Assembly: GCA_934621605.1 (NCBI GenBank)
Contig: CAKTUZ010000017.1
Location: 1,572-65,571 of the forward strand
From: an uncultured bacterium
GTDB lineage: Bacteria > Vulcanimicrobiota > Xenobia > Xenobiales > Xenobiaceae
DNA length: 64,000 nt
Direction of reading: 5' to 3'
The notes beneath the pieces were generated by a model. That model was not told where the DNA came from. It did no database searches and saw only the letters and a list, made by a program, of their open reading frames with translations. Position 1 is the first letter of the stretch. Each line of letters starts with the position of its first letter. Of the stretch, positions 5,606 to 63,300 are shown in pieces. Made by a program: the position numbers and the translations under genes.

Positions 5606-5617
5606 AACTCAGTAATT

Positions 5618-36853: not shown

Positions 36854-37540
36854 TTAAAGTGTGCTACAACTTGCAAGCGACTCAAGCTTTGAGAGCCATA
36901 AGTTAAATAATGGGCATTGGTTGCGCATTTTATCTATTCCAATAGCTTTAGCGATAACAATTCCTGATGTTGTTTTTCCGTAGCGACCACGAGCCCAACG
37001 CTCCAACCTTTTTGATGGAGCAGTCTGTGGACTATTATTTATTTTTTCAGGAGAACCACATTCTTCAATAACCTTGTCTACTTCTGATTTGTAAATACTC
37101 AAATAACTAGACAAAATTTCACTATCACTAAAAAGCAGTGCCTCAAATTCATGTACTGCCATGAATGGAATAAAGCGTCCCCGTACATTTTTATTTTCAC
37201 ACGCTTCAGCTATGGCTTTTTGCGCAGCGCTATTTAATGTATGGGCTATTTGTTCCGGAGTATCGTGAACTTTTATTTTATCTTTGTCAGGCCACTCGCT
37301 TAAACCGTAATAATCAACAAATGTAGATATAATGGTATTGTTGCGCTGCTTCAAATGGTTGCATATATCCGTCTTAACGCGTTGAAACTTAACATCTCCA
37401 CCCTTTTGCCCTTTCTTAGAAATAATGATAGGGGTCATGTATATACCTTTGACTGCCATATAAGGGGCCAGCACATCATTTATAAACTTTTGCTCGGTCT
37501 GGCCTTCAACTAAAACGACAACTTCCAGAAAGTTACTCAT
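36854..37540 (-). CDS. DUF4276-family protein (Toprim-like), partner of the upstream AAA ATPase
   Basis: MSNFLEVVVLVEGQTEQKFI, an hhhhVEGxTE pattern as in OLD/Toprim. Its ATG overlaps the ATPase stop (ATGAGTAA). Confidence 0.6.
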   Translation of the reverse strand: MSNFLEVVVLVEGQTEQKFINDVLAPYMAVKGIYMTPIIISKKGQKGGDVKFQRVKTDICNHLKQRNNTIISTFVDYYGLSEWPDKDKIKVHDTPEQIAHTLNSAAQKAIAEACENKNVRGRFIPFMAVHEFEALLFSDSEILSSYLSIYKSEVDKVIEECGSPEKINNSPQTAPSKRLERWARGRYGKTTSGIVIAKAIGIDKMRNQCPLFNLWLSKLESLASCSTL

Positions 37541-38618
37541 TGGCGCTGCCTCCCTGAATAACATTTTTAATCCATAATTCACCAACAGAGTAATCTTCAA
37601 GCCAAGCAGTATAATCTCGCTCATTTAGTCTAGCAAACGTAGAAGCTCCATTTTTACGTTTAGCTACAATAATATCTTTTATTGAAAACTGATCTAATAA
37701 AAGTGGAGACTGTGTAGCTAGAATAACCTGCGTATGTGCGGAAGCCAATTTTATAAGTTCTGCCAATATGCCAATAGCTTCTGGATGCAGTCCCAACTCA
37801 GGTTCATCAATAATAATAGTAGCTGGCGGCTGCGGTTGAAGTAAAGCAGTAGCTAAGCAAATAAATCTCATAGAACCGTCAGAAAGTTGGCTTGGCCGCA
37901 TAGGATAATCATTGAGTCCTACTTGTTGCCAGTTTAATCTTATCATTTCATTGAAATTAGGCTTTAAAATGAAATCATAAAAAAACGGCACAACTAGCTG
38001 AACAGCATTAACAATTTGGCTATATTCTACAGGAAACTCGCTTTTCAATCTATACAAAAAAGCAGCGATATTTCCAGCGTCAGCAGCTAGGACTTCGCCA
38101 TGATTTACATCACACTCTCGACGCATAGGAGCGAATTTACTAGTATCGTGGAAGTGATAAATCTTCCAGTTTTTTATAGAATTATAAGTATATTCTGTAG
38201 CCTTTGAACTTAACTCATTCGGTAGCTGAGCGTCATAACTCGGAACAGGAAAATCACGCGTAAAATTCCAGTAACCGTTATTGAAATGCCTTTGTTCTTT
38301 AGTTATAAAAAGATCACCATTTTCACTCGGTATAAAATTGAAATCATAGCCGTTTTTTCCCAACCTGAGTTGAATTTCAATTTTACGTGTCAATTTAGGG
38401 CCGCCGAAGAAGTAAGCGTCAGCAGCTCCAGCCACATATTCAGACAGTCCTTCCGGTTTCATCATAGCCGAAAGAATTTCGAATATTTCCAGGAAGTTGC
38501 TCTTTCCGGCTCCATTGGCTCCAACAATAACGTTAATGTTGCGCAATTCGAAATCGACGAGTTCTCTTATCGACTTAAATCCTCTAACTGTTATTTTATC
38601 CAATTTAGACGGCTTCAT
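37533..38618 (-). CDS. AAA_21/ABC-type ATPase (SMC/RecF-like), first gene of the ATPase+DUF4276 pair
   Basis: Walker A IVGANGAGKSNFLE, signature LSDGSMRF, Walker B IIIDEPELGLHP, H-loop ILATQSP. The start is set at MKPSKLDKI (GGAAGGA RBS 7 nt upstream); the ORF-track start at 38879 runs into the IS end. Confidence 0.7.
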   Translation of the reverse strand: MKPSKLDKITVRGFKSIRELVDFELRNINVIVGANGAGKSNFLEIFEILSAMMKPEGLSEYVAGAADAYFFGGPKLTRKIEIQLRLGKNGYDFNFIPSENGDLFITKEQRHFNNGYWNFTRDFPVPSYDAQLPNELSSKATEYTYNSIKNWKIYHFHDTSKFAPMRRECDVNHGEVLAADAGNIAAFLYRLKSEFPVEYSQIVNAVQLVVPFFYDFILKPNFNEMIRLNWQQVGLNDYPMRPSQLSDGSMRFICLATALLQPQPPATIIIDEPELGLHPEAIGILAELIKLASAHTQVILATQSPLLLDQFSIKDIIVAKRKNGASTFARLNERDYTAWLEDYSVGELWIKNVIQGGSANE

Positions 38619-38698
38619 AAATATAAATCCTTCCAATTGTAGTAGGCGGAAACCCACTGCCTTTAGGCGGTGGGAGGAGCCTTGTAAATTTTTGGACA

Positions 38699-39103
38699 TT
38701 AACCTTGGTTTTCTATGTGTTTTTGTATAGTAACTGATGATACCTCGCCTATACTGCGCATGAAATAACCGTATGACCAAAAGGTTTTCTTTTTCCAATA
38801 TTGTTTGGACAATAAGTTCGGATATTTTTGCCATAAGTAATATGTAGTTTCTTGCTGAATTACTTTTACAATATCGCAAACTCTGTCTACTGCATTATAA
38901 CTTATTAAACAGTGTATATGGTCTTTATCAGCCTCCATTGCTATAACATCATAGCCTCTAAAAGCACAGATGTCATAAAATTTTCGTTTTACGTCGTCAA
39001 CTATAGAACCTGTAAGAAGTTGTTTACGATATTTAGTGACAAGAACTATATGAATTTTTAGGTTATATTTTCGTCTGTTATGACGATTATATTTGTTATC
39101 CAT
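38699..39103 (-). CDS. tnpA: IS200/IS605 Y1 (HUH) transposase TnpA
   Basis: HuH motif HIHCLISY and C-terminal catalytic Tyr region. 134 aa. Confidence 0.85.
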   Translation of the reverse strand: MDNKYNRHNRRKYNLKIHIVLVTKYRKQLLTGSIVDDVKRKFYDICAFRGYDVIAMEADKDHIHCLISYNAVDRVCDIVKVIQQETTYYLWQKYPNLLSKQYWKKKTFWSYGYFMRSIGEVSSVTIQKHIENQG

Positions 39104-39187: not shown

Positions 39188-40327
39188 ATGAAGCAGATGG
39201 TTGCCACAGCTAAAATCCAAATATCTGTAGATATGGATAGTAAAATTTTGCTTGACGAAACCATGTCTGCCTATTCTGCTGCCTGCAACTATGTTTCTGA
39301 CTATGTATTCCGCACTCACGACTTAAAACAGTTTTCTCTTAACAAAGCTCTATATTCAATACTTCGAGAAAAGTTTAGTCTTAAATCACAAATGGCTCAA
39401 TCTGTTTTAAAAACTGTAATTGCCAGATATAAGACCATTTTGGAAAATCAGAAAAAGTGGATTAAACCGTGTTTCAAGAGGCCACAATATGATCTTGTAT
39501 GGAATAGAGACTATTCTCTTGCTAGGAACTGTTTCTCAGTAAATACACTGAAAGGTCGTATTAAACTGCCATATTTTGCTAAAGGTATGTATAAATATTT
39601 TGACCATACTATTTATAAATTTGGTACTGCCAAGCTTGTAAATAAGTGCGGTAAGTATTTTTTACATATCGCTGTTACTTATGATATTGAAGAAGTTAGA
39701 CTCTATGATATCTGCAACATTGTTGGCATTGATAGAGGTATTAACTTTGTTGTTGCTACTTACGACAGTAAGCACAGATCTGATTTTGTCAATGGCAGAA
39801 TTATAAAACAAAAACGTGCTAACTATTCAAAACTTCGTAAAGAATTACAAATGCGTCAAACTCCGTCGGCAAGACGTAGACTTAAAGCTATTGGTTCACG
39901 AGAAAACCGTTGGATGCAAGATGTTAACCACTGTGTATCAAAGGCACTCGTGAAAGCCAATCCCAAGCATACGTTATTTGTCCTTGAAGACTTGTCAGGC
40001 GTTCGAAATGCCACAGAGCGCGTTAAAACAAAAGATCGCTATGTATCTGTATCGTGGTCATTCTATGACCTTGAACAGAAGCTTATCTACAAAGCTAAAC
40101 AAAATCAATCTATAGTAATTAAGGTTGACCCTCGTTATACAAGCCAGCGTTGTCCGGTGTGTGGGCACATTGAAAAAGCCAATCGCAACAAAAAGACACA
40201 TCTGTTTAGCTGTAAAAGCTGTGGCTACAAATCAAATGATGATCGTGTTGGAGCGATGAATCTGTATCACATGGGGGTAAACTATCTTAGAGATAGTCAA
40301 GTACCTGATACAGTTACAGTAGAGTAA
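39188..40327 (+). CDS. tnpB: IS605-family TnpB (RuvC-like RNA-guided endonuclease)
   Basis: RuvC-I IGIDRG, RuvC-II VLEDLSG, zinc finger CPVCGH...CKSCGY, RuvC-III NDDRVGAMNL. Confidence 0.85.
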   Translation: MKQMVATAKIQISVDMDSKILLDETMSAYSAACNYVSDYVFRTHDLKQFSLNKALYSILREKFSLKSQMAQSVLKTVIARYKTILENQKKWIKPCFKRPQYDLVWNRDYSLARNCFSVNTLKGRIKLPYFAKGMYKYFDHTIYKFGTAKLVNKCGKYFLHIAVTYDIEEVRLYDICNIVGIDRGINFVVATYDSKHRSDFVNGRIIKQKRANYSKLRKELQMRQTPSARRRLKAIGSRENRWMQDVNHCVSKALVKANPKHTLFVLEDLSGVRNATERVKTKDRYVSVSWSFYDLEQKLIYKAKQNQSIVIKVDPRYTSQRCPVCGHIEKANRNKKTHLFSCKSCGYKSNDDRVGAMNLYHMGVNYLRDSQVPDTVTVE

Positions 40328-40480: not shown

Positions 40481-40694
40481 AGACACAGCACTAGCAGCTC
40501 CCACATAAATCAGCGCTAGAAATTCTCTTATTCATAGTTTTTTTCCCGCCAAGTTAGTTAGCTACACGTATAGCTAAGCAGCGCTATTAGCACAAATAGC
40601 ACCAAACTAGACATTTTTGGGGCAGGGTAAAAATGATAAGCTGCGGAAAGTGCTCTGCGCCATTTTTCATACAATTGGGAGAGCACTTTTTCTT

Positions 40695-42572
40695 ATGGAT
40701 AGCCAGATTCACAACCAGATCGTAAGTTTTATTTGGAGCGTGGCCGACGATTGTTTGCGCGACGTTTATGTGCGCGGCAAATACCGCGATGTGATTCTGC
40801 CTATGACCGTTATCCGCCGTTTAGATGCTGTTTTGGAAAAGACTAAAGAAGCGATATTAAAAACTAAAAAGCAACTAGACGAGAGACATATAGCCGGACA
40901 GGAACGGGTATTATGTAAAATTGCCGGGCAAGCTTTTTGTAACAGTTCCCCTTTTTGCTTAAAAGATTTAACTTCACGCGCCAAGTCTCAGCAACTTAAA
41001 GCCGACTTTATCGCCTACTTGGACGGCTTCTCTGAAAACGTACAAGAAATACTTAATAAATTTAAGTTCCGCAACCAAATTGACACTATGGTAGAAGCCG
41101 ATATTTTGGGCGCCGTTATTGAAAAGTTTGTTTCCCCTACTATAAATTTAAGTCCCGAGCCGGTTTTAGATGACCTTGGACTGGTAAAAATTCCCGGCCT
41201 AGACAATCACGCTATGGGCACTATTTTTGAAGAGCTGGTGCGCCGTTTTAATGAAGAAAACAACGAAGAAGCCGGCGAACACTGGACTCCTCGCGATGTG
41301 GTGTACCTTATGGCCGATTTGGCCGTTTTGCCGGTAGCCGATAAAATTAAAGATAGTACCTATACTTGTTACGATGGCGCTATGGGTACTGGCGGTATGC
41401 TCACTGTGGCTCAGGAAAGGCTCAGCCAAATTGCTAAGCAAAAGGGCAAGCAAGTGTCTATCCATCTTTATGGCCAAGAAATTAACCCCGAAACTTACGC
41501 TATTGCTATAGCTGATATGATCTTAAAAGGTAAAGGTGAAACTTCACAGGACAACTTTATTTATGGCTCTACCCTTTCCTCTGACGGTTTAGCTGACAAA
41601 ACTTTTGATTTTATGTTATCTAATCCGCCCTATGGCAAATCTTGGAAGACCGACGCCGAAAAGATGGGCGGCAAAAGTGGCATAAAAGATCCGCGTTTTG
41701 TTATTGGCGCCAATGAAGATGAACAACAAGAAGAAGCTGTTGCCAAAAAGAAAAAAGCTAAAAATTCTAATGAATTTAGTATGCTTTCTGCTACTGGCGA
41801 CGGTCAGTTGCTTTTCTTGCTCAACAATATTTCCAAAATGAAAGAAAGTACCGATTTAGGCTCGCGCATTGTGGAAGTTCACAACGGCTCTTCCCTCTTT
41901 ACTGGAGATGCTGGCCAAGGCGAAAGCAACGCTCGCCGCCATATGATTGAGCGCGACTTGGTGGAAGCTATTATCGCTTTACCTGAAGGTATGTTTTACA
42001 ATACTGGTATAGCTACTTTTATTTGGGTACTTTCCAACCGCAAAGAAGAGCGCCGTCGCGGCAAAATTCAGTTAATTGACGCTACCTCTATGAAAGCGCC
42101 GCTGCGTAAGAATTTGGGTAAGAAAAACTGTGAATTTACTCCCGAAATTCGCCAGCAGATTCTCGATTTATATTTCAATATGGAAGAGAACGAGTATTCT
42201 AAGATCTTCCCTAATAGCGAATTTGGCTTTTATAAAGTAGAAGTGCTGCAACCCAAGCTTGATGAACAAGGCCAGCCCTTGCGCGACAAAAAAGGCAACT
42301 TTATTGAAGATAAAGATAAAAAAGATAGCGAAATAATTCCTCTTCGCTATGAAGGCGGCATAGAAGCTTTCTTAGATAAAGAGGTGCGCCCCTTCGCTCC
42401 CTATGCTTACGTAAATGAAGCGGCTACCAAAATTGGCTATAAGCTTAGCTTTACTAAATATTTTTACAAGCCCATTCAGTTGCGCCCCTTAGCGGAAATT
42501 GTAGCCGACATTCGCGCCCTAGAAGCCGAAACGGCCGGCTTATTAGAAGAAATTATCGGCGAGGAGGCTTAA
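40695..42572 (+). CDS. hsdM: type I R-M N6-adenine DNA methyltransferase subunit HsdM
   Basis: HsdM_N-like N-terminus (IWSVADDCLRDV), SAM motif, catalytic LSNPPYG. The start is placed at MDSQIHNQ; the ORF track begins 26 codons earlier. Confidence 0.85.
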   Translation: MDSQIHNQIVSFIWSVADDCLRDVYVRGKYRDVILPMTVIRRLDAVLEKTKEAILKTKKQLDERHIAGQERVLCKIAGQAFCNSSPFCLKDLTSRAKSQQLKADFIAYLDGFSENVQEILNKFKFRNQIDTMVEADILGAVIEKFVSPTINLSPEPVLDDLGLVKIPGLDNHAMGTIFEELVRRFNEENNEEAGEHWTPRDVVYLMADLAVLPVADKIKDSTYTCYDGAMGTGGMLTVAQERLSQIAKQKGKQVSIHLYGQEINPETYAIAIADMILKGKGETSQDNFIYGSTLSSDGLADKTFDFMLSNPPYGKSWKTDAEKMGGKSGIKDPRFVIGANEDEQQEEAVAKKKKAKNSNEFSMLSATGDGQLLFLLNNISKMKESTDLGSRIVEVHNGSSLFTGDAGQGESNARRHMIERDLVEAIIALPEGMFYNTGIATFIWVLSNRKEERRRGKIQLIDATSMKAPLRKNLGKKNCEFTPEIRQQILDLYFNMEENEYSKIFPNSEFGFYKVEVLQPKLDEQGQPLRDKKGNFIEDKDKKDSEIIPLRYEGGIEAFLDKEVRPFAPYAYVNEAATKIGYKLSFTKYFYKPIQLRPLAEIVADIRALEAETAGLLEEIIGEEA

Positions 42573-42576
42573 GCTA

Positions 42577-43992
42577 ATGGCGATGAAGGCTTATAAAAGT
42601 TACAAAAACGTAGATTTACCCTGGCTTAAACGTGTGCCGGAGCATTGGGAAGTAAACAAAATAAATCGCCTTTTTAATCTAATTAGCAGCGGCACAACTC
42701 CCAATTCTGGAAAGATCAACTTTTACGAAAACGGAAATATTCCGTGGCTTAATTCTGGCGATTTATACGGGGATAAACCTTTAATAGAGAAAACAGCAAA
42801 ACATGTAACACAATCAGCACTAAATAGTTTTTCAACATTAAAACTCTACAGTGCTAACTCAATTGCTATAGCAATGTATGGAGCCTCAGTCGGCAATATA
42901 TCTATAGTTCCATTTGAATTTTGTTGCAACCAAGCTTGTTGCGTTTTTTCTAAGCCAATTAAAAATTTAAATTTAAAATATGTATATTATAGTGTTATTG
43001 CAGGCAAGAAAGACCTCATTGAACAAGCTAGAGGAGGCGGGCAACCTAATATAAACCAGGACATACTGAAGCAATTTCGTTTGCCTTTTCCTCCTTTTCA
43101 CGAACAAGAGCAAATTGTGCGCTATTTGGATTGGCAAAATTCACGCTTAAACAAGCTGATCAACGCCAAGAAAAAAGAAATTGCCTTACTGGAAGAGCAA
43201 AAGCAAGCTTTAATTAGCCAAGCCGTAACTAAAGGCTTAGATCCCCACGCCCCCCTAAAAGACAGCGCCATAGACTGGATCGGCCAAATACCTGAGCATT
43301 GGCAAATCAACAAAATGAATCGCCTCTTTAATTTAATTGGCAGCGGCACAACTCCCAGTTCTGGTAGCATTGATTTTTATAATAACGGAAACATTCCGTG
43401 GCTTAATTCTGGCGATTTATACGGTGACAAACCTGTAATAAAAAAGACAGCAAAACATATTACAGAACTAGCATTAAATAGTTTTTCAACATTAAAACTT
43501 TACAATGCTGACTCAATTGCTATAGCAATGTATGGAGCCTCAGTCGGCAATATATCTATAGTTCCATTTGAATTTTGTTGCAACCAAGCATGCTGTGTTT
43601 TTTCTAAGCCAATTAAGAATTTAAGTTTGAAGTATGTATATTACAACGTTATTGCAGGTAAAAAAGACCTTATTGAGCAAGCTAAGGGAGGTGGACAACC
43701 TAACATAAATCAAGACATACTCAGACAGTTTCGCCTGCCTTTCCCTCCTCTTCACGAGCAAGAACACATTGTTGACTATTTAACTGATCAATGTGCCATT
43801 ATTGATGATTTAATTGCAAATATAAATAAAACAATATCCTTCCTTCAAGAATACCGCACCCGCCTAGTGGCCGATGTTGTCACCGGCCAAATCGACGTGC
43901 GCAACATTGCTATTCCCAACTACGAAACCGTAACCGAAACCATCGACCAACCCGAAACCACCGAAGACGAAACCAACACCACGGAGGAGTAA
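42577..43992 (+). CDS. hsdS: type I R-M specificity subunit HsdS with two near-identical TRDs
   Basis: Two ~165-aa blocks (VPEHWEVNKINRLFNLISSGTTP... and IPEHWQINKMNRLFNLIGSGTTP...) are ~90% identical and separated by a coiled-coil spacer. It follows hsdM by 4 nt. Confidence 0.85.
   Translation: MAMKAYKSYKNVDLPWLKRVPEHWEVNKINRLFNLISSGTTPNSGKINFYENGNIPWLNSGDLYGDKPLIEKTAKHVTQSALNSFSTLKLYSANSIAIAMYGASVGNISIVPFEFCCNQACCVFSKPIKNLNLKYVYYSVIAGKKDLIEQARGGGQPNINQDILKQFRLPFPPFHEQEQIVRYLDWQNSRLNKLINAKKKEIALLEEQKQALISQAVTKGLDPHAPLKDSAIDWIGQIPEHWQINKMNRLFNLIGSGTTPSSGSIDFYNNGNIPWLNSGDLYGDKPVIKKTAKHITELALNSFSTLKLYNADSIAIAMYGASVGNISIVPFEFCCNQACCVFSKPIKNLSLKYVYYNVIAGKKDLIEQAKGGGQPNINQDILRQFRLPFPPLHEQEHIVDYLTDQCAIIDDLIANINKTISFLQEYRTRLVADVVTGQIDVRNIAIPNYETVTETIDQPETTEDETNTTEE
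42630..43780 (+). repeat. internal tandem duplication (about 42633-43120 and 43289-43777) = duplicated TRD of hsdS
   Basis: Direct nucleotide-level repeat of ~490 bp. It is visible as a near-identical protein repeat in the ORF translation. Confidence 0.8.
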
Positions 43993-43995
43993 CCA

Positions 43996-45729
43996 ATGAC
44001 AGATAATCAACCAACTTCTACTGAAGAAAAGCCAGGCGGCTACATTGAAAGTATCACTTTTAACAATGGACAGGAACTTAAGTTAAATAAAAATGATATA
44101 GTTGTGCTAGTTGGGCCAAACAATGCCGGTAAAAGTCAAGTCATAAGGGATATTTATATTTTGGCCAAGAGTGATAAAAATGATATTCAAACAAGCAATA
44201 TTGTAGTGTCAAATATATTTGTACATAAAAATAATGTGTCAATAGAACCTATTATTAATAGAACTTTTTCTAAAGACAAGTATGGAAATCAGATACGATC
44301 TGATTTCAAAGGTAATACAGAATCATTTGGAATGTACATTAGCGATTCATTTTATCGTAATAATTTTCCGGAAAGTTTCGGAATATTTGGAGATACATTT
44401 GTTATAAATTTAGATACTTGGCATAGATTACAAACATGTCATCCAGCAGAGAATACGACGAAAGATGAAGTAAAAACCCACCCGATACAATATATAACTT
44501 TCGATTCCTCTTCCAGATCTAAATTGTCGGAGATTTTTAAACGTGCATTTAAAACTGGTCTGATACCGTATCCCCAATATGGCTCACGTATTCCTTTATG
44601 CATAGGTGAACCTATAAAACTTTCTGACGAATATAACGATGAGCAAGAACGTCTAGAAGCGTATGCCAGTAAATTAGCAACATATCCTCAAGTCCAAAAT
44701 CAGGGAGATGGTATAAAAAGTTTTGTCAGCATACTATTATACTTAATACTTGATCATTATTGCGTATACTTAATTGATGAACCAGAAGCTTTTCTTCATC
44801 CACCACAAGCTCATATTATGGGGCAAATTATTGGAGATACATTGTCAGAGCAACAACAAGCTTTTATAGCCACCCATAGTGAAGAAGTAATTAAAGGACT
44901 TTTAGAAAAATGTCCAAGGCGTGTAAAAGTTATACGCATAACTAGGGAAAATAATAGCAATCATTTTGCAATACTTAACAATGAAGATTTACAAAAAGTT
45001 TGGAATGACCCACTTTTAAAATATTCAAACATAATGTCCAGTCTGTTTTATCAACAAATCGTGCTTTGTGAGAGTGAATCAGATTGCAAGATGTATTCAA
45101 TCATAGACGGACATCTAAAGGAACAGCAAGGCAAGTATTCAGAGACTTTGTTTATACACTGTAACGGAAAGAATAAACTTCCAGATATAGCCAAAGCTTT
45201 ATGCGCTCTAGGCGTAAAATTATACGTTATAGCTGATATAGATATACTTAAGAATGAAAATTTGATTAAAAAGCTTGTCAGTAACTTTAAAGCCGACTGG
45301 GAACAAATCAGTAAATCTTACAAAGTTTTTTCTTCCAGTATAGAAAGCCAAAAAAAAGATTTAAACAGAACAATTCTTCAACAGCAGATAGAAAAGATAT
45401 TACGTTCTTCAAATAGTGCAACTATAAACAATCAAGATGTACAAAAACTCCAAAAACTTCTAAAAATTTCATCTGGATGGGACGAATTAAAGGAAAATGG
45501 CGAACAATCTATTCCTCGTGGTGATGCAACTTCAAGCTACAGAAACCTAATAAAATTCCTACAAGCAGCGGGTATCTTTATAGTTCCAGTTGGTGAACTT
45601 GAAAATTTTGTAAAAGAAGTAGGCGGACATGGCCCCAGTTGGGTCGACACAGTTTTACATGACTATCCAGATTTAACTGATCCAGTTTACAACACAATAA
45701 AGGATTTCATTCAAAGCATGAACTTATAA
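43996..45729 (+). CDS. OLD/PARIS-like ATP-dependent nuclease: N-terminal ABC/AAA_21 ATPase fused to C-terminal Toprim-like domain, embedded between hsdS and hsdR
   Basis: Walker A VVLVGPNNAGKSQV, Walker B/D-loop YLIDEPEAFLHPP, H-loop IATHSEE. C-terminal QQIVLCESESDCKMY and KLYVIADIDIL fit Toprim E...DxD. It starts 4 nt after the hsdS stop and ends 18 nt before hsdR. Confidence 0.7.
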   Translation: MTDNQPTSTEEKPGGYIESITFNNGQELKLNKNDIVVLVGPNNAGKSQVIRDIYILAKSDKNDIQTSNIVVSNIFVHKNNVSIEPIINRTFSKDKYGNQIRSDFKGNTESFGMYISDSFYRNNFPESFGIFGDTFVINLDTWHRLQTCHPAENTTKDEVKTHPIQYITFDSSSRSKLSEIFKRAFKTGLIPYPQYGSRIPLCIGEPIKLSDEYNDEQERLEAYASKLATYPQVQNQGDGIKSFVSILLYLILDHYCVYLIDEPEAFLHPPQAHIMGQIIGDTLSEQQQAFIATHSEEVIKGLLEKCPRRVKVIRITRENNSNHFAILNNEDLQKVWNDPLLKYSNIMSSLFYQQIVLCESESDCKMYSIIDGHLKEQQGKYSETLFIHCNGKNKLPDIAKALCALGVKLYVIADIDILKNENLIKKLVSNFKADWEQISKSYKVFSSSIESQKKDLNRTILQQQIEKILRSSNSATINNQDVQKLQKLLKISSGWDELKENGEQSIPRGDATSSYRNLIKFLQAAGIFIVPVGELENFVKEVGGHGPSWVDTVLHDYPDLTDPVYNTIKDFIQSMNL

Positions 45730-45747
45730 AGGATATCAATAAAAGCT

Positions 45748-48678
45748 ATGCCAACCAATGTGACGGAAAAAAGTTTAGAAGACATTATTGTTAATTACTT
45801 AGTGCAAAATAATGGCTATGAACAAGGCGTTAATGCCGATTATAATCGGGAATACGCTATAGACGAAAAGCGCCTTTTTCGTTTTTTGCAAGCAACTCAG
45901 CCTAAGGAAATGCTAAAACTGGGGCTGCCTGGTAATGATTTGCGGCGCACTAAATTTTTTAACCGTTTGCAAAGTGAAATTATTAAACGCGGCATTGTGG
46001 ACGTTTTGCGTAAAGGCATAAAAGACGGCCCTACCCATTTGGATTTATTCTACCTTACGCCTTCAGAAAAAAATATTCAGGCCCAGGAACATTTTCAGCA
46101 AAATATTTTTAGCGTTATTCGCCAGCTACAATACTCGCCGACGGCTGCCCGCTGTGCTTTAGATTTGGCTCTTTTTATTAACGGTTTGCCTATTCTCACT
46201 TGTGAATTAAGAAATACTCTTTCCGGCCAAAATGTAGAAGACGCTGTTGAGCAATATAAAACCGATCGCAACCCTCGGGAAGCTATCTTCCAATTTAAAC
46301 GCTGCCTCGTCCATTTTGCTATTGACGATCAGCAAGTAAAATTCTGCACTAAACTAAACGACAAAAAGTCTTGGTTCCTCCCCTTCAATAAAGGCTTTAA
46401 TGACGGCGCAGGCAATCCGCCTAATCCTAGCGGTATCAAAACTGATTACATGTGGAAAGATATTTTCACTAAAAATCAGCTTACCAATATTATCGAAAAT
46501 TATGCTCAAGTTGTCGATAAAGGCAGTAAACAAATCTTCCCCCGCTACCACCAATTGGCGGTAGTAAATGCTTTACTTAAAGACGTCCAAGAAAAAGGCG
46601 TCGGCCAGCGCTATCTAATTCAACATAGCGCCGGTAGCGGCAAATCTAATTCTATTGCTTGGTTGGCCCATCAATTGATCGGACTAGAAAAAGACGGCCA
46701 AAATATCATCGATTCGGTAGTTGTGGTTACCGATAGGCGCAACTTAGATGATCAAATAAAAAATACCATTAAACAATTTACCGAAGTACGCAGCACCGTA
46801 GTTCACGCCGATCATTCCAACGATTTGCGCCAAGCTATCGACTCTGGCAAAAAAATTATTATTACTACTATCCAAAAATTTCCTTACATTTTGGAAAGCT
46901 TGGGCACCGAACACAAAGGGCGCAAGTTTGCCATTATTATCGACGAAGCCCACTCCAGCCAAAGCGGTCGCACTGCGGCCAAAATGAATACTGCCCTTTC
47001 CGGCCAGTACGATCCTGACGACGCTAAAAGTACCGAAGACTTAATCAATGAAGCCATCGAAGGGCGCAAAATGCTCACTAACGCCAGCTATTTCGCCTTT
47101 ACAGCTACGCCCAAAAACAAAACTTTAGAAATGTTCGGTAAAGCTGCTATTGAGCCCGACGGCAGCGTGCGCCATTTTCCTTTCCACAACTACCCCATGA
47201 AGCAAGCCATTCAAGAAGGCTTTATTATGGACGTTTTGCAATACTATACGCCCATTTCCAGCTACTACAAATTGGCCAAAATTGTAGAAAACGATCCCCT
47301 TTTTGACAAAAAGAAAGCTCAAGCCAAATTGCGCAGTTTTGTGGAAAGCAACCATTTTGCCATTAGCCAAAAGGCAGCCATGATGATAGAACACTTCCAC
47401 ACTCAAGTAATTGGCCAAAATAAAATTGGCGGTCAAGCTCGAGCTATGGTAGTTACTGGCAGCATTTTGCGAGCTATCGACTACTTCTACGCCTTCCAAA
47501 AGTGCTTGGCCGAAAGGAAAAGCCCTTATAAAGCTATCGTCGCTTTTTCTGGTGAAAAAGAATATGACGGCCAAATTTGCACGGAAGCCAGCCTCAACGG
47601 TTTTCCCAGCAGCCAAATTCCCGATAAATTTAAGGAAGATCCCTATCGCTTTTTAATTGTGGCTAATAAATTCCAAACTGGTTTTGACGAGCCGCTTTTG
47701 CATACTATGTATGTAGACAAACAACTAAGCGACATAAAAGCCGTACAAACGCTTTCCCGCTTAAATAGAGCTCATCCGCAAAAATTTGATACTTTTGTGC
47801 TCGATTTTGCTAACGATGCCAAAACCATAGAAGAAGCTTTTTCCGCTTACTATCGCACGACCATTCTTTCCGGAGAAACCGATCCTAATAAGCTTAACGA
47901 CTTGGTCTGCGAAATGGAAAATCACCAAGTTTACACCCAAAGCCAAATAAATTTGCTGGTAGACTTGTATTTACATAAAGCCAACCGCAACCAGCTTGAT
48001 CCTATTTTGGATAATTGTGCCGCCAACTACAAAGACTTAGACAGAGAAGATCAAGTAAAATTTAAGAGTGCCGCCAAATCATTTGTCAGGACTTACAGTT
48101 TTTTAGGAGCTATTATGCCATACGGCAGCCCTGAGTGGGAAAAGCTCTCTATTTTCTTAACTTTACTTTTACCCAAGTTGCCAGCGCCTTTAGAAGACGA
48201 TCTTACTGCCGGTATTTTGCAAGCTATAGACTTAGATAGTTACAGGATCCAGGCCCAAAGCATGATGTCTATCCGCCTAGAAGACGCCAACGCCGAAATA
48301 AATCCAGTTCCAGTAGGCCAAGCCATGCAACCTAAAGAAGCTGAACTAGATCCTTTAACAGCCATTTTAGACGAATTTAACAGCTTTTTTGGCAATATCG
48401 ATTGGCAAGACAAAGACAACATAAAGCAACAGATCTCCACTTTGCCTCAAGCTGTAGCTCAAAACCAAAACTACAAAAATGCGGCCAAAAATTCCGATAA
48501 AGAAAATGCCAAAATGGAAAGTGACAAAGCCTTAGATGAAGCTATATTGGCTAGGTTTAGCGACTGGTACGAACTATTTGACCAGTTCCAAAGCAATGCC
48601 AGCTTCAAAGAATGGCTCAGCAACATGGTATTTAAAGCTACCTACGGCAAACTAAGAGGCAACCGCCCATATTGCTAA
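45748..48678 (+). CDS. hsdR: type I restriction endonuclease subunit HsdR
   Basis: N-terminal nuclease domain, helicase motifs I QHSAGSGKSNSI and II IIIDEAHSSQ (DEAH), plus motifs III-VI. 976 aa. Confidence 0.85.
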   Translation: MPTNVTEKSLEDIIVNYLVQNNGYEQGVNADYNREYAIDEKRLFRFLQATQPKEMLKLGLPGNDLRRTKFFNRLQSEIIKRGIVDVLRKGIKDGPTHLDLFYLTPSEKNIQAQEHFQQNIFSVIRQLQYSPTAARCALDLALFINGLPILTCELRNTLSGQNVEDAVEQYKTDRNPREAIFQFKRCLVHFAIDDQQVKFCTKLNDKKSWFLPFNKGFNDGAGNPPNPSGIKTDYMWKDIFTKNQLTNIIENYAQVVDKGSKQIFPRYHQLAVVNALLKDVQEKGVGQRYLIQHSAGSGKSNSIAWLAHQLIGLEKDGQNIIDSVVVVTDRRNLDDQIKNTIKQFTEVRSTVVHADHSNDLRQAIDSGKKIIITTIQKFPYILESLGTEHKGRKFAIIIDEAHSSQSGRTAAKMNTALSGQYDPDDAKSTEDLINEAIEGRKMLTNASYFAFTATPKNKTLEMFGKAAIEPDGSVRHFPFHNYPMKQAIQEGFIMDVLQYYTPISSYYKLAKIVENDPLFDKKKAQAKLRSFVESNHFAISQKAAMMIEHFHTQVIGQNKIGGQARAMVVTGSILRAIDYFYAFQKCLAERKSPYKAIVAFSGEKEYDGQICTEASLNGFPSSQIPDKFKEDPYRFLIVANKFQTGFDEPLLHTMYVDKQLSDIKAVQTLSRLNRAHPQKFDTFVLDFANDAKTIEEAFSAYYRTTILSGETDPNKLNDLVCEMENHQVYTQSQINLLVDLYLHKANRNQLDPILDNCAANYKDLDREDQVKFKSAAKSFVRTYSFLGAIMPYGSPEWEKLSIFLTLLLPKLPAPLEDDLTAGILQAIDLDSYRIQAQSMMSIRLEDANAEINPVPVGQAMQPKEAELDPLTAILDEFNSFFGNIDWQDKDNIKQQISTLPQAVAQNQNYKNAAKNSDKENAKMESDKALDEAILARFSDWYELFDQFQSNASFKEWLSNMVFKATYGKLRGNRPYC

Positions 48679-48791
48679 GTGCCATACTGCCGCCAAACGT
48701 TACTAACGTAGCGCCAACAATACTGCCGCCGCAGCTATGCTTTAAGGCTGCTAAGCGCTACACAACTTTTTTAATTACACCATCCCCTATT

Positions 48792-48828
48792 TTAATTTAG
48801 TCATTTTAGCTTTAAATGACTAAATTAA
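48792..48828. promoter_or_regulatory. perfect 15-bp inverted repeat (7-nt spacer) operator-like site upstream of fic, plus a third half-site at 48838-48848
   Basis: TTAATTTAGTCATTT-tagcttt-AAATGACTAAATTAA. It lies 50-90 nt upstream of the fic start. Confidence 0.5.
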
Positions 48829-48880
48829 AACTATTGATGACTAAATTGAAATGGTATACTGAAGCCCAACCAAAATAAGA

Positions 48881-49945
48881 ATGCGGTGCGAAAGTATGCC
48901 TAATTATAACTTTGAAAATAACTATAAAGCCTTGTTGCAACCGGATATTGTCTCTTTATTGCTAACTATTCGCGAATACAAGGGAGAGCAAAATCTATTT
49001 ATTGAGGCTCAAAGCGATACTTTAGCTAAATTGGTCGAAGTTGCCAAAATTCAAAGTACGGAAGCTTCCAATAAAATTGAGGGCATTTACACTGCCAACG
49101 AGCGTTTGCAAGAGCTTATGGCCGAAAAAACTGCTCCTAAAACGCGCAGCGAACAAGAGATCGCCGGCTATCGAGACGTGCTTAACACTATCCACGAAAG
49201 TCACGATTATATACCAATTAAACCTTCTATCTTGCTGCAATTGCACCGCGACTTATACAAATTTTCCGCTAGTATTGGCGGAACTTTTAAAGCTGTCGAT
49301 AACCAAATCGCTGAAATAGACAGCCAAGGCAATAAAAAACCACGCTTCCAACCGGTGGCCGCTTGGGAAACTGCTGAAAATATAGAAACTCTGTGCGCTT
49401 CTTTCAATAGCGCTTTGCAAAATAGCCAGCTCGATCCCTTGCTTTTAATTCCTATGTTTATTTTGGATTTTCTTTGCATCCATCCTTTCCAAGATGGCAA
49501 TGGACGTATGAGCCGCTTGCTGACGCTGCTTTTATTGTACCGCGCCGGTTATATTGTGGGAAAATATATAAGTATTGAAAAACTGATTGAGCAAAGCAAA
49601 GAAACCTACTACGAAAGCTTAAAAGCCAGCTCTGTCGGTTGGCATGATGGCCAAAATGATTATGCTCCTTTTGTGCGCTATATGCTGGGAGTTATAGTAG
49701 CAGCTTATAAAGAATTCGCTTCGCGAGTGAAAATTTTAACTGTTAGCAACTTAACTAAAGTCGAACGTCTGGAAGCAGTTATTAAAGCTCACCTCGGCCC
49801 CATAACTAAAGCTGAGCTAGTGAAAAAATGTCCAGATATAAGCCAAACTACCATTCAGCGCACTTTGGCTGAATTGCTTAAAGCCAACAAAATACACAAA
49901 CTTGGCGGCGGCCGTTATACTGCTTATGTGTGGTGTCATAACTAA
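48881..49945 (+). CDS. fic: class II Fic-domain protein (AMPylase-type) with N-terminal inhibitory helix and C-terminal winged-helix domain
   Basis: Fic motif HPFQDGNGRMSRLL. Inhibitory motif SNKIEG ((S/T)xxxE(G/N)) upstream. HTH-like C-terminus. Confidence 0.8.
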   Translation: MRCESMPNYNFENNYKALLQPDIVSLLLTIREYKGEQNLFIEAQSDTLAKLVEVAKIQSTEASNKIEGIYTANERLQELMAEKTAPKTRSEQEIAGYRDVLNTIHESHDYIPIKPSILLQLHRDLYKFSASIGGTFKAVDNQIAEIDSQGNKKPRFQPVAAWETAENIETLCASFNSALQNSQLDPLLLIPMFILDFLCIHPFQDGNGRMSRLLTLLLLYRAGYIVGKYISIEKLIEQSKETYYESLKASSVGWHDGQNDYAPFVRYMLGVIVAAYKEFASRVKILTVSNLTKVERLEAVIKAHLGPITKAELVKKCPDISQTTIQRTLAELLKANKIHKLGGGRYTAYVWCHN

Positions 49946-56424: not shown

Positions 56425-59400
56425 CTATTCTCGGGACTTTAATTCTGCAATTCCAAGCCCGAAGTATTTATCAAAAAAGGCTTTCAGCTTCTCGATTATA
56501 CCTTGCTTCTTCTTGTCTCTGCCGCTACCGCCGAAGCGTGAAATTGGGGGCATGAGCTTGCCGATTCCTGTTCCTATTGTTTTTAATTCTCCGTCAAGGA
56601 AGGCGCGGTCAATAAACTTTCTGGTTTCTTCCGGATTCAACTTTTCGTTCCTGATAATTTCCGTCAAATCATTTTCTTCTTGTTCCAGAACAAAACGCCG
56701 CCAATCCGTATTAACCTGCGTGTCAGTATTGACACGACCAATAAATGCTTCGATAAGCGCTTTTTTGCTGCGCAGCTGCGTACTTGCCTCAACTGTCTTG
56801 CGAATAGAAGTGAGGATTTCTTGATCTTCGCAGTTGCTGTCATGATATTTTTCAACCAACATCAATATATAGTCAATATTGATTTCCACTTGCTTGATCA
56901 GCTCGATTTCAAATTCAATATCATCAGTTATATCTTCTTTTTCGGCATCTTTTTTTCTGCGGTACTTGTCGTAGAGATCAAGGTAAGCACTTTGATAATC
57001 CTGCAAGTCTCTGGCCGAGATATTATCCTTTTCTGCAAACTGGTCAAAAGATGAAAGAATGTTTCTTATGCTGAGGATCGAGCCAAACAGTTTGATAAAG
57101 TCCTTCTCCGCCTGCTCTCCGACAATCTGAGCACCAAAAGGAAACTCTGTTTCCAGCTTTTCAAGCAAATCAATATAGCCAGGATGATATTTTCCTCGAC
57201 TGTCCTCGTAGCCGTTCCAATAATCGTTGAAGCTCTTGAGCAGCACAATACCGCTCGCGTTCTTATCGCCAAAGATGGCGATTGCATCATCTGTGGCTTG
57301 CTGCAAATCACGGAAGCAAACTATATTGCCATAGGTCTTTACAGAGTTCAAAATACGGTTAGTCCGGGAATAAGCTTGAATCAGCCCATGCATCTTAAGT
57401 TTTTTGTCCACCCATAGAGTGTTCAGTGTGGTAGCATCGAAGCCCGTTAAGAACATATTCACAACAATTAGCAAATCAACTTCCCGATTCTTTACTCGCA
57501 TGGACAAGTCCTTATAATAGTTCTGGAACTTGTCAGAGGAGGTATCAAAGTTAGTTCTGAACGCAGCGTTGTATTTTTTTATGGCATTTTCAAGGAACCC
57601 GCGAGAATTCCGATCCAGGGCATCGGTATCAAAGCCCTCCTCTTGCAGAACATCTTCGGGATCATCCTCATTTGCAGAGTAGCTGAAAATAGTGGCAATT
57701 GTAAACTGACGGCGGCTTTCGGAAATCTGTCTCTGAAACTCATTGTAATACTTTATTGCCATGGGAATGGAACTGACAGCGAATATGGCGTTAAAACCAG
57801 CCATCCGTTTGCCTTTCAAAGAGTAAAAACTATTGCGCTTGGTTTTCTGATCGAAATGCTCCAGCGTGTATTTAACGATTTCCTGAATACGCTCCGGCGC
57901 CTCCATCGCCCGTTCACTGTCGATTGCAGCCACGCTCTTATCCTTGATGTTCTCTTTTTCCTTAACCGTATTCACATAGTCGACGCGGAACGGAAGCACA
58001 TTGCCGTCATTAATAGCATCCACGATGGTGTAATTGTGCAGCTGATCGCCAAAGGTCTGCGGCGTGGTCAGAAGTTCCGTGCGTTTGCCTTTTCCTGCAT
58101 TGGCGGCAAAAATGGGGGTGCCCGTAAAGCCGAACAGGTGATAATTTTTAAAGGACTTTACAATCTTAGCGTGCATATCGCCGAATTGGCTGCGATGGCA
58201 CTCGTCAAAGATGATCACGCAATGCTTGCCAAATACTTCGTGTCCCTTGTTCTTCGTTATAAAGTTGTTCAGCTTCTGGATGGTGGTGATAATGATTTTA
58301 TATTGATGGAACCCGCCTTTCTCATTCCTGTCCTCAAGCTGTCTCTGCAAAACTGTTGTAGAGGTATTGCTGTTGGCAGAGCCTTTTTCAAAGCGGTCAT
58401 ATTCCTTCATAGTTTGATAGTCAAGGTCTTTGCGATCAACAACGAACAAAACCTTATCTATATAAGGAAGTGCGGACGCAAGCTGTGCGGTCTTGAAGGA
58501 AGTTAGGGTTTTGCCGCTTCCTGTGGTATGCCAGATATAACCTCCGGCCTCAGTCGTTCCCATCTTTTTATAGTTGGTCGAAATTTCAATACGGTTTAAG
58601 ATACGCTCAGTCGCGGCAATCTGATAGGGGCGCATGACCATCAGAATTTCTTCTGTTGTGAAAACACAATATTTGAACAGCACATTCAGAATGGTATGCT
58701 TGGCAAAGAAGGTTTTCGTAAAATCGATCAGGTCGGCAATGACCTTATTGTTGCCGTCCGCCCAGAAGGAAGTAAACTCAAAACTATTGCTGGTTTTCTT
58801 CGATTTCCGTTTTGCAGATTCGCCCATCTCTTTGATGTGGCTGTTTCTGGTGGTGTTGGAATAATATTTGGTGTGTGTTCCGTTGGAAACAATGAAAATC
58901 TGCACATACTCATACAAGCCGCTAGCAGCCCAGAAGCTGTCTCTCTGGTAGCGTTTGATCTGATTAAAGGCTTCCCGTATGGCAACACCACGGCGTTTAA
59001 GTTCCACATGGACAAGAGGCAGACCGTTGACCAAAATAGTCACATCATAGCGTGTATCGTGATCGCCTTCGATTTCCTCATACTGGTTGATAACCTGCAA
59101 ACTGTTATTGTGAATATTCTTTTTATCTATAAGCCGAATATTCTTGGAAGTTCCGTTATCCCTGCGAAGTGTCTTTACATGGTCGATCTGGATGGTGCGA
59201 CTTTTCTCAACGATGCCCTCATTGGCATTAGCAAGATTTTCCACAAAGAACCGCTTCCACTCGCCGTCGGTAAAAGTATAATCGTTCAAACGCTCCAGCT
59301 GCTGTCTAAGGTTGACAATCAGACTTTCTTTATCATGGATGGAAAGATACGCATATCCTTGAGCAGTCAGCAGACGGATAAATTCCTTTTCCAAAGCCGC

Positions 59401-59496
59401 TTCGCTCTGAAAGCTGTCAGAACGTGAGCTTTCCGGCGTATATTCAGCAGCTACGGTGCTGTCATTACTTTCAATAATAATATTGTAATTACTCAC
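56425..59496 (-). CDS. hsdR: type I restriction endonuclease subunit HsdR (type IC/EcoR124-like size)
   Basis: Helicase motif I HTTGSGKTLTSF and motif II IIFDECHRSQ (DECH). N-terminal nuclease region VNGLPLVHVELKRRG. 1023 aa. Confidence 0.85.
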   Translation of the reverse strand: MSNYNIIIESNDSTVAAEYTPESSRSDSFQSEAALEKEFIRLLTAQGYAYLSIHDKESLIVNLRQQLERLNDYTFTDGEWKRFFVENLANANEGIVEKSRTIQIDHVKTLRRDNGTSKNIRLIDKKNIHNNSLQVINQYEEIEGDHDTRYDVTILVNGLPLVHVELKRRGVAIREAFNQIKRYQRDSFWAASGLYEYVQIFIVSNGTHTKYYSNTTRNSHIKEMGESAKRKSKKTSNSFEFTSFWADGNNKVIADLIDFTKTFFAKHTILNVLFKYCVFTTEEILMVMRPYQIAATERILNRIEISTNYKKMGTTEAGGYIWHTTGSGKTLTSFKTAQLASALPYIDKVLFVVDRKDLDYQTMKEYDRFEKGSANSNTSTTVLQRQLEDRNEKGGFHQYKIIITTIQKLNNFITKNKGHEVFGKHCVIIFDECHRSQFGDMHAKIVKSFKNYHLFGFTGTPIFAANAGKGKRTELLTTPQTFGDQLHNYTIVDAINDGNVLPFRVDYVNTVKEKENIKDKSVAAIDSERAMEAPERIQEIVKYTLEHFDQKTKRNSFYSLKGKRMAGFNAIFAVSSIPMAIKYYNEFQRQISESRRQFTIATIFSYSANEDDPEDVLQEEGFDTDALDRNSRGFLENAIKKYNAAFRTNFDTSSDKFQNYYKDLSMRVKNREVDLLIVVNMFLTGFDATTLNTLWVDKKLKMHGLIQAYSRTNRILNSVKTYGNIVCFRDLQQATDDAIAIFGDKNASGIVLLKSFNDYWNGYEDSRGKYHPGYIDLLEKLETEFPFGAQIVGEQAEKDFIKLFGSILSIRNILSSFDQFAEKDNISARDLQDYQSAYLDLYDKYRRKKDAEKEDITDDIEFEIELIKQVEINIDYILMLVEKYHDSNCEDQEILTSIRKTVEASTQLRSKKALIEAFIGRVNTDTQVNTDWRRFVLEQEENDLTEIIRNEKLNPEETRKFIDRAFLDGELKTIGTGIGKLMPPISRFGGSGRDKKKQGIIEKLKAFFDKYFGLGIAELKSRE

Positions 59497-59515
59497 GCGG
59501 CATCTTCCCCATTTT

Positions 59516-60163
59516 TTATTTTTGCTGGAAAGTCAGCAATTTATCCCGATAAAACTCATACTGTTTCTTTCTCGCTGTAAGCTCTGCTGTAAGCTCTGCT
59601 GTAAGCTCCGTGAAATTGTCCAGGATGCGGACAATTTCACTCTGCACTGGCAAAGGAGGAACGGGAATTCGGATTGCTTTTATTGCAGGTACACTCGAAT
59701 GAACAACTTTGCTTTTGACCTTCCCCGCACTTTTTTGCCGTCTTGCTTCTTCGGTTGCAAGCGCATAACTCAAAAACTTTGGATTCTCATTGTGTTTTAG
59801 AACAACAATATCCCCACCTGCCAAACAATCGTCATCGCCTACATATGCGCATGATTTTGCAATATCTTCAACGCTCTCTCCAGTGATGGCAAACAGAATG
59901 TCTCCATGGCTGAAATATTTGGGAGACTGCACATACTCAAGCCGTGTATGAGATACACATGAATCGAACCAAATGCCGTATGTTGTGTAGATTTCTCCGT
60001 AACGAACACAAGGAATTCCATCCTTGGTAACTTGGTCACGCTTTATTCCAGAGCCACGGAAAACATCGGTTGCTATTTCGCCAAGTGTTTTATACTCCAC
60101 CCCATCTGGGCAGTATTGCTGAATCAGTTCGTCCAGCTTGCTCTGTTTTCTCTCATTACTCAT
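59516..60163 (-). CDS. hsdS: half-size type I specificity subunit HsdS (single TRD) with C-terminal TAEL repeats
   Basis: A single TRD followed by the conserved helix ...[32 protein letters not shown]. The ATGA start overlaps the rhuM stop. Confidence 0.75.
59576..59611. repeat. 12-bp tandem repeat (GTAAGCTCTGCT x ~3) encoding (TAEL)n in hsdS
   Basis: Read directly: gtaagctctgct gtaagctctgct gtaagctccgtg. Confidence 0.85.
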
Positions 60164-63132: not shown

Positions 63133-63207
63133 TCCGACATAGCTCAGCGGTAGAGCAATCGGCTGTTAACCGATCGGTCGTAGGTTCAAATCCTGCTGTC
63201 GGAGCCA
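63133..63207 (+). tRNA. tRNA-Asn (anticodon GTT), copy 1, CCA encoded
   Basis: Cloverleaf folded by hand: acceptor TCCGACA/TGTCGGA, D-arm GCTC-AGCGGTA-GAGC, anticodon stem ATCGG/CCGAT with loop CTGTTAA, T-arm GTAGG-TTCAAAT-CCTGC, discriminator G + CCA. Confidence 0.9.
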
Positions 63208-63216
63208 ACTTTATAT

Positions 63217-63291
63217 TCCGACATAGCTCAGCGGTAGAGCAATCGGCTGTTAACCGATCGGTCGTAGGTTCAAATCCTGCTGTCGGAGCCA
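63217..63291 (+). tRNA. tRNA-Asn (GTT), copy 2, identical
   Basis: Exact repeat of copy 1 with an 84-bp period. Confidence 0.9.
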
Positions 63292-63300
63292 ACTTTATAT

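Follow-up and report, generated by a model that had tools for sequence, protein, structure and literature searches.

What is a gene for an ATPase-nuclease doing between the specificity and restriction genes of a type I restriction-modification (R-M) operon, and does it act through the enzyme that surrounds it or independently of it? The question is raised by a stretch of 64,000 nucleotides (nt) from an uncultured bacterium of the family Xenobiaceae (contig CAKTUZ010000017.1, positions 1,572 to 65,571; the whole stretch is called the window below), in which a plus-strand open reading frame (ORF) at 43996-45729, encoding 577 amino acids (aa) and termed gene X here, lies between hsdS and hsdR. 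An initial annotation had described it as an OLD/PARIS-like ATPase-Toprim nuclease and as a positional analogue of PrrC that guards the restriction enzyme. We favour, with moderate confidence, a different reading, namely that X is an autonomous OLD-type defence cassette in an hsdS-hsdR hotspot, co-expressed with restriction but not dependent on the Hsd proteins.

The ORF indeed contains all of the motifs that had been quoted for it (aa 40-47, 259-270, 292-297, 356-363 and 411-418), and the flanking hsdM, hsdS and hsdR form a real type I set according to Pfam and PADLOC (Table 1). In the X protein, Pfam recognizes AAA_21/AAA_15/SMC_N and, at aa 350-416, OLD-like_TOPRIM (26.4 bits versus a cut-off of 23.2). 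The top PADLOC model is Old (4e-24), with NsnB, GajA and AriA ranking below. A phmmer search of the PDB with X alone returned generic ABC transporters only, and a profile of the family reached the OLD protein of Thermus scotoductus (TsOLD) at an E-value of 0.0045. As single-sequence and profile searches were weak, structure prediction and hhalign were needed. The AlphaFold model has a pLDDT score (per-residue confidence) of 70.6 overall, 80-96 in the Toprim core and low values in the ATPase insert. Its full-length fold matches are the retron-Eco8 OLD effector (6e-12), TsOLD (6P74, 5e-11) and GajA (2e-9), the Foldseek matches of the ATPase are Rad50, SMC and OLD heads, and the match to AriA is confined to the ATPase head (6e-5). 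Comparison of the family profile with P2 Old by hhalign gave a probability of 95.7% (E-value 9e-9). The C-terminal domain, for which Toprim, DUF4435 and PrrC-type nuclease domains had been considered, is thereby identified as an OLD-type Toprim.

The catalytic residues of the characterized OLD proteins, apart from K550 of P2 Old, have counterparts in X (Table 1). The K37A mutation in the Walker A motif of P2 Old abolishes killing (PMC7049728). At the position of the ABC signature, the family alignment shows no variation at Q236, G237, D238, G239, K241 and S242 and almost none at I240, and LIDEPE supplies D261 and E262 of Walker B. In the Toprim core, which also includes G391-K392, the motifs VLCESESD (aa 356-363) and VIADIDIL (aa 411-418) contribute the metal-A triad, with E359 equivalent to TsOLD E377 and P2 Old E398, and D414 and D416 equivalent to TsOLD D431/D433 and P2 Old D453/D455. 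D363 aligns with the metal-B ligand TsOLD D381 or P2 Old E402, and a complete metal-B site is predicted from D363, E534 and E536, all of which are invariant. The catalytic residues of ATPase and Toprim are invariant throughout the family alignment, with relatives about 50% identical, and mutating the aligned residues kills cleavage by TsOLD or killing by P2 Old (PMC7049728). X is thus apparently an active OLD-family nuclease, and the assignment is far beyond chance, because more than 3,600 homologues were found and the catalytic residues do not vary.

OLD proteins are divided into classes by context (1 solitary, 2 Gabija, 3 retron, 4 PARIS; PMC10568477), and X has the architecture of class 1. 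With P2 Old, TsOLD and Vc OLD it shares the single chain of about 525-590 aa, the N-terminal ABC ATPase with a helical insert, the C-terminal OLD-type Toprim and, across the family, a mostly solitary gene habit, although this copy lies in an hsdMSR operon. The sequences are far apart: P2 Old was reached solely by profile-profile comparison and was not recovered by tblastn at an E-value of 1e-5, and the spacer from the DxD to the second metal-B motif measures 120 aa in X, 88 aa in P2 Old and 47 aa in TsOLD. To our knowledge, P2 Old, Vc OLD and YbjD are the only class 1 OLDs with any phenotype.

Other ATPase-nuclease systems were considered and rejected. Gabija (class 2) does not fit, since the gene downstream of X encodes HsdR, a superfamily 2 (SF2) protein, and there is no adjacent UvrD-like GajB; GajA itself is an OLD-type ATPase-Toprim protein and a good fold match, but its PADLOC score is weaker than that of Old. 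A class 3 (retron) assignment is excluded by the hsdS and hsdR neighbours and the absence of an adjacent reverse transcriptase, and an Rfam scan of the window found tRNAs only and no msr/msd noncoding RNA. PARIS (class 4), which consists of the AriA ABC ATPase and the AriB DUF4435 Toprim, also exists as a fusion and senses anti-restriction proteins, has the ATPase-Toprim logic in common with X. X is nevertheless not a PARIS protein, because it is without DUF4435, the PARIS-defining domain. HEC-04 is likewise an ABC ATPase-Toprim fusion, but embedded in Hma, whereas X is hosted by a type I R-M system. Its model is not among the 25 best PADLOC matches of X (all with E ≤ 5e-7) and was absent at E ≤ 1e-12 from five homologues including Hma-adjacent ones, Old always being the top match. 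PrrC, finally, occupies the same slot (hsdM-hsdS-prrC-hsdR) and also joins an ABC-type NTPase head to a nuclease, and a common abortive-infection logic is plausible. PrrC and RloC were rejected as identities for X, the C-terminal domain of which is not a PrrC-type anticodon nuclease; the effector of PrrC is an anticodon nuclease and that of X a Toprim, and PrrC is nearly always embedded in type I R-M, whereas the X family mostly is not.

Gene X is a true insertion into the hsdS-hsdR junction, as demonstrated by X-less syntenic operons, the low GC content at third codon positions (GC3) of X and a relic of the hsdS end. Using HsdR as a probe in metagenome contigs, we identified two operons (L087 and L088) with an HsdR 97-98% identical to that of the window (95.5% at the DNA level) and without X, in which only 5 nt separate hsdS from hsdR; the originally proposed insertion in the prrC slot is therefore borne out. 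Relative to these alleles, about 1.75-1.78 kb, in essence the X ORF with a few extra bases, stands in place of about 31 nt. AGGA is found at both edges of the insert (43985-43988 and 45730-45733), and the last approximately 10 codons of hsdS differ from the X-less allele. X has a GC content of 0.332 and a GC3 of 0.242, compared with 0.43/0.43 for hsdM and 0.42/0.43 for hsdR. The second copy of an imperfect direct repeat astride the X stop codon (Table 1) consists of the relic hsdS end and the hsdR leader. This repeat could be due to chance or could be microhomology used for the insertion, and it is given little weight because about one such repeat is expected by chance in 2.2 kb. Among 13 more distant operons of the same Hsd family with a readable junction, none contained X.

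Gene order around the operon is kept from contig to contig (clpP ... hsd operon - SoFic - M23 - NHL), with cassettes that come and go. The window carries a HEC-01 system, an IS200/IS605 insertion sequence (IS) and X, L108 carries HEC-01 and X but no IS, and L088 carries none of the three; L087 lacks X, and its contig ends before the region upstream of hsdM.

The junctions of X are tight. The hsdS stop codon (43990-43992) is followed by CCA and then by the X start codon, a gap of 3 nt, and the X stop codon (45727-45729) lies 18 nt upstream of the hsdR start codon at 45748, as originally given. The GGAGGAG sequence before X corresponds to GAGGA ahead of hsdR in L087 and L088. X would thus re-use the Shine-Dalgarno sequence of the junction, and would therefore be co-transcribed and translated with the restriction genes. 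A promoter/terminator scan found no plus-strand terminator between hsdS, X and hsdR, and the count of promoter-like sites was within shuffled expectation. Co-transcription, which had been taken as given, is contradicted by nothing and is plausible. At the 5' end of the operon, homologue alignments begin at residue 27 of the annotated HsdM, and its true start is probably the ATG at 40695. The hairpin 3' of hsdR is also kept in L087 and L088. It probably marks either the point where the operon ends or an operator; since no T-run follows, it may serve as an operator instead of terminating transcription.

X belongs to a large family, and its members are mostly found elsewhere. Clustering at 50% identity divides the subfamily (E ≤ 1e-30) into 1,162 clusters, nearly all of 555-600 aa and typically of a steady ∼560-580 aa; relatives occur in gut Clostridia/Oscillospiraceae metagenome-assembled genomes. 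The subfamily is rare on phages and plasmids, the respective collections holding one and seven relatives, all distant, with no annotation beyond AAA/ATP-binding protein. We surveyed the gene context of 80 loci in species-representative genomes of many phyla, with homologues 31-53% identical to X. The immediate upstream neighbour encodes HsdS in 5 of 71 loci, the products in other loci including ResIII helicases (4), N6_N4 methylases (3), Eco57I/MmeI-type proteins (2-3), TIR proteins (2) and HmaA (2), and the immediate downstream neighbour encodes HsdR in 2 of 76. About 85-90% of family members do not adjoin type I genes, and many are solitary; P0081, for example, 51% identical to X, is a lone gene amid housekeeping genes. 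Adjacency to HsdS is nevertheless enriched, in line with the expected association with R-M and defence contexts (5/71 versus approximately 1/778 genes elsewhere, odds ratio ∼59, p = 2e-5, with the non-adjacent genes having been screened less sensitively).

Embedding in restriction-type operons has recurred. The order hsdS-X-hsdR is found again in L001, L108, L015 and L027. In L022 (6073-14889), X lies in a type III system (mod - X - AAA_21 ATPase - small ORF - res), and in L047 (4226-14025) in an Hma system (HmaA-like helicase - X - DUF2806 - DUF1156 methylase). L012 has the order hsdR-?-hsdM-hsdS-X-Shedu, and in L039 X is 3' of hsdR; the Hsd proteins of these two unrelated type I operons are only about 24% identical to those of the window. 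Embedded copies do not group together in the family tree but are polyphyletic, and the nearest relative of each is in another context. The X protein of L015, for instance, is 72% identical to that of L019 and 48% identical to that of the window. The GC3 of X is well below that of its hsd neighbours also in L015 (0.34 versus 0.81/0.74), L012 and L039. A single ancestral insertion for all hsdS-X-hsdR operons was rejected, because the L015 and L027 copies are nearer to non-type-I copies than to the X of the window; operons at intermediate HsdR distance are empty. X is hence a mobile cassette that has landed repeatedly in restriction-type operons and shares their expression signals. In a related type I operon (L089, HsdR 67% identical), the hsdS-hsdR slot is occupied by a 197-aa DUF4145 protein (6397-6990). 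In L108, where the X allele is 92% identical, hsdM (4147-6024) is called as an HsdM_N part of 88 aa and an N6_Mtase part of 494 aa, owing to either a frameshift or an assembly error.

Alleles of X are mosaics with two hypervariable modules. Compared with the L001 allele (P0003), protein identity is 30-60% in module 1 and 90-100% in the remainder of X. At the DNA level, identity is 53-67% over X codons ∼30-280 (44084-44830), 100% over the 3' half of X and 99-100% over hsdM; the 3' half of X is thus closer between the two loci than the flanking hsdR (88-98%). A different allele, P0004, is 93-100% identical to the X of the window except in module 2 (20-57%), which lies after the DxD strand of the Toprim and before the GELE strand. 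Modules 1 and 2 are also the least conserved regions across the whole family. Since the dimerization domain of TsOLD is an insert in the ATPase, module 1 is, by analogy, probably a dimerization region. Module exchange by recombination would be typical of surfaces that face fast-evolving phage proteins, be they triggers or inhibitors.

Table 1. Coordinates of gene X, its motifs and variable modules, the insertion junctions and the host operon within the window.
Feature	Position	Strand	Basis
hsdM, type I methyltransferase	40617-42572	+	Pfam HsdM_N + N6_Mtase; PADLOC MTase_I, E 7e-228
hsdS, specificity subunit	42577-43992	+	Pfam Methylase_S, E 3e-55
Inserted segment relative to L087/L088	43957-45734	+	blastn homology ends ∼43956 and resumes at 45735
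GGAGGAG Shine-Dalgarno sequence of X, inside the end of hsdS and 6 nt ahead of the ATG	43983-43989	+	Sequence
Gene X, ABC-ATPase + Toprim nuclease of the OLD family with class 1 architecture	43996-45729	+	Pfam, PADLOC, fold, alignments
Walker A GPNNAGKS, aa 40-47	44113-44136	+	K46 = P2 Old K37
Hypervariable module 1, aa ∼50-240, ABC-ATPase insert	44173-44715	+	Allele comparison with L001
QGDGIKS at the ABC-signature position	44701-44721	+	Family alignment
Walker B/D-loop LIDEPEAFLHPP, aa 259-270	44770-44805	+	D261 = P2 Old D299; H268 = P2 Old H306
H-loop ATHSEE, aa 292-297	44869-44886	+	H294 = P2 Old H332
Toprim core	45043-45249	+	Pfam OLD-like_TOPRIM, alignments, invariance, pLDDT 80-96
Hypervariable module 2, aa ∼400-520, helical insert	45193-45555	+	Allele comparison with P0004; secondary structure
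GELE	45592-45603	+	E534, E536 = P2 Old metal-B ligands D541/E543 (hhalign); TsOLD S478/E480
Imperfect 21-nt direct repeat, 18/21 matches, astride the X stop codon	45697-45746	+	Repeat search
Relic of the old hsdS 3' end, AGGATATCAATAA versus GAGGATCAATAA in the X-less allele	45730-45742	+	Junction comparison
hsdR, restriction/translocase subunit	45748-48678	+	Pfam HSDR_N, SWI2_SNF2, ResIII, T1R_D3-like; TIGR00348
Perfect 17-bp AT-rich hairpin 3' of hsdR, before the Fic gene	48790-48831	.	z -8.4 versus shuffles

Together, the above observations are consistent with an autonomous cassette. X would have arrived as little more than an ORF, through recombination where hsdS meets hsdR, and would form a second, independent layer of defence against phages. 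Judging from P2 Old, Vc OLD and TsOLD, a phage cue would be sensed and a Toprim nuclease gated by ATP hydrolysis would then cut nucleic acid; candidate targets are tRNA anticodon stems, or DNA in the form of nicks. Phage replication would be stopped or the infection aborted. The two modules are the likeliest determinants of sensing or of evasion of phage inhibitors, and X is expected to work without the Hsd proteins, just as R-M would work without X. The X-less alleles show that the partnership with hsdMSR is facultative, and embedding in general is also supported by the second type I operon of the window, which has an embedded gene (PDC-S05) as well.

Several observations weigh against this interpretation. 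The enrichment beside hsdS and restriction genes could mean functional coupling and not just a permissive site, and the tight translational coupling is equally expected of a guard. The catalytic K550 of P2 Old aligns with G544 of X, adjoined by H545, which is invariant, and K540, which is mostly conserved, and the ATPase insert region is poorly modelled (low pLDDT). Furthermore, the closest characterized relatives of the subfamily are distant and its function is assigned by analogy, so that substrate and trigger are not confidently transferable.

Direct triggering of X by anti-restriction proteins of phages or plasmids (Ocr/ArdA-type mimics or Stp-like peptides), as for PARIS, with the Toprim then shutting the cell down, would explain why so many kinds of restriction system host X, and embedding in type I, type III or Hma would put a backup where it is needed. 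Repeated independent embedding in several restriction-type systems fits a trigger common to their inhibitors, modules evolving by recombination suit a surface that recognizes fast-evolving phage proteins, and precedents exist in Ocr for PARIS and Gabija, Stp for PARIS and PrrC, and RecBCD inhibitors for P2 Old; the same logic was put forward explicitly by Payne et al. (bioRxiv 10.1101/2024.01.29.577857). We nevertheless regard such a sensor as unlikely, as the majority of the family is without an adjoining R-M gene, no link in sequence or fold to the Ocr-binding features of AriA was found past the generic ABC fold, and hypervariability fits the evasion of direct inhibitors (of the Oad1 or Gad1 type) equally well. 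The wider proposal that X is a new kind of restriction guard, fired when type I, type III or Hma systems are neutralized and equipped with two modules as exchangeable trigger-recognition surfaces, also appears distinctly unlikely. A guard masked in the manner of PrrC, held inactive by the HsdM/S/R complex and fired when the complex is inhibited, would account for the slot identical to that of prrC, the tight translational coupling and the recurrence of the hsdS-X-hsdR order; there is also the anecdotal case that the window and L001 differ by swaps of the hsdS target recognition domains together with X module 1, hsdM and the X C-terminus being near-identical. Yet PrrC is nearly exclusively type I-embedded, embedded X copies are polyphyletic with nearest relatives in other contexts, and the C-terminus is a Toprim and not an anticodon nuclease of the PrrC type. 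A specific protein-protein mask would not tolerate such varied partners, which include Hsd families only about 24% identical, type III and Hma, and given the mostly solitary family, the diverse hosts and the X-less alleles we consider masking very improbable. Of the proposed positional analogy with PrrC, the slot is shared, but the comparative data lean against dependence on Hsd.

Two further explanations dispense with sensing or with function. X might help restriction by degrading or nicking DNA cut or translocated by HsdR, much as RecBCD does, and so boost restriction. In favour of a helper, DNA is a substrate of TsOLD and the class 2 OLDs, which act on it as 5'-3' exonucleases and nickases, the Vc OLD nickase acts on phage replication, and X is co-expressed with a DNA-cutting translocase. 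It is improbable, however, in view of the mostly solitary family, the persistence of X-less alleles of the operon and the fact that the physiological target of P2 Old is tRNA. Alternatively, a selfish or decaying cassette could be kept by a slot that tolerates it and expresses it well, with which the foreign composition, the presence/absence polymorphism and the nearby IS200/IS605 would agree. The ORF is intact in every allele seen, though, catalytic residues are invariant at about 50% identity, and the family is large, diverse, constant in length and found in contexts rich in defence genes; we give a mere passenger only a very slim chance.

The autonomous cassette has clear precedents. According to PMC12255303, the hsdS-hsdR junction is a hotspot at which defence systems recombine: the RRDM island of enteropathogenic Escherichia coli (EPEC), which carries the RptR regulator, has DarTG2 inserted at the same site as X, the cargo there being a toxin-antitoxin system and not an OLD protein, and an ATPase-containing pair occupies the slot in four genomes. 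Payne et al. (bioRxiv 10.1101/2024.01.29.577857) systematically surveyed genes embedded in type I R-M, Hma, BREX and DISARM (an approach termed "guilt-by-embedding"), validated HEC-04 in Hma, where defence needs the ATPase and Toprim residues, found that embedded systems cloned alone still defend, and put forward the backup-guard idea for ABC-ATPase systems that are embedded; PMC12707154 reviews the guardian systems of R-M. The known class 1 OLDs work on their own. As for biochemical activity, P2 Old, when activated, performs ATPase-dependent cutting of tRNA anticodon stems (PMC12445682), and Vc OLD, a nickase of DNA, prevents phages from replicating without a need for RecBCD (PMC11741312). 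We found no description of an Old-type nuclease in the hsdS-hsdR slot in the searchable literature, and no Old entry among type I-embedded systems in the accessible part of the supplements of Payne et al. The original impression that the architecture was undescribed thus holds for an OLD gene at this position, while the embedding in general and the guard idea had been published, and X is a new instance and not a new principle. The new elements are the natural presence and absence alleles of X and its two hypervariable modules, which recombine.

Other defence genes are found in the window. Upstream of the type I operon, a complete HEC-01 system (36854-38879, minus strand) consists of the HEC-01A ABC ATPase (37533-38879, PADLOC 9e-132) and the Toprim-like HEC-01B/DUF4276 protein (36854-37624, 8e-75), and the island therefore has two ABC-ATPase/Toprim systems, one split and one fused (X). 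In the few related contigs, HEC-01 and X either occur together (window, L108) or are missing together (L088). The IS200/IS605 element between HEC-01 and hsdM, with TnpA (Y1_Tnp) at 38699-39103 (minus strand) and TnpB at 39188-40327 (plus strand), is absent from the otherwise syntenic L108; Rfam gave no match in the approximately 150 nt 3' of tnpB, no dedicated omega/reRNA search having been made. Directly 3' of hsdR is a SoFic-like Fic gene (48881-49945, plus strand, PADLOC SoFic 1e-37). In L001, hsdR and the Fic gene are separated by an inserted alcohol-dehydrogenase gene, and a SoFic-like gene (4991-6265) is found ahead of hsdS-X in the unrelated locus L034. The second type I R-M operon, of another family (56425-62510, minus strand), encodes an EcoR124-type HsdR (56425-59496) and contains a half-size hsdS (59516-60163), the defence candidate PDC-S05 (60589-61287, PADLOC 8e-103) between hsdM and hsdS, and hsdM (61284-62510). 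Three tandem, apparently identical tRNA-Asn(GTT) genes (63133-63375, plus strand, spaced 84 nt) are the sole Rfam matches in the window.

The locus is a natural experiment, as one type I operon at one chromosomal site exists with and without an OLD cassette, and additional alleles differ in just one of two discrete modules. Autonomy, trigger and module specificity are therefore testable by cloning, in class 1 OLDs, which are understood less well than any other branch of this major defence family. If X were a guard after all, the OLD family would gain a functional class embedded in R-M systems, and the PrrC/PARIS principle would become more general. If it is autonomous, it is a further case of the published rule that defence genes lodge in R-M operons. 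It also defines a widespread Old-like subfamily, the members of which are now labelled just "AAA family ATPase" or "ATP-binding protein".

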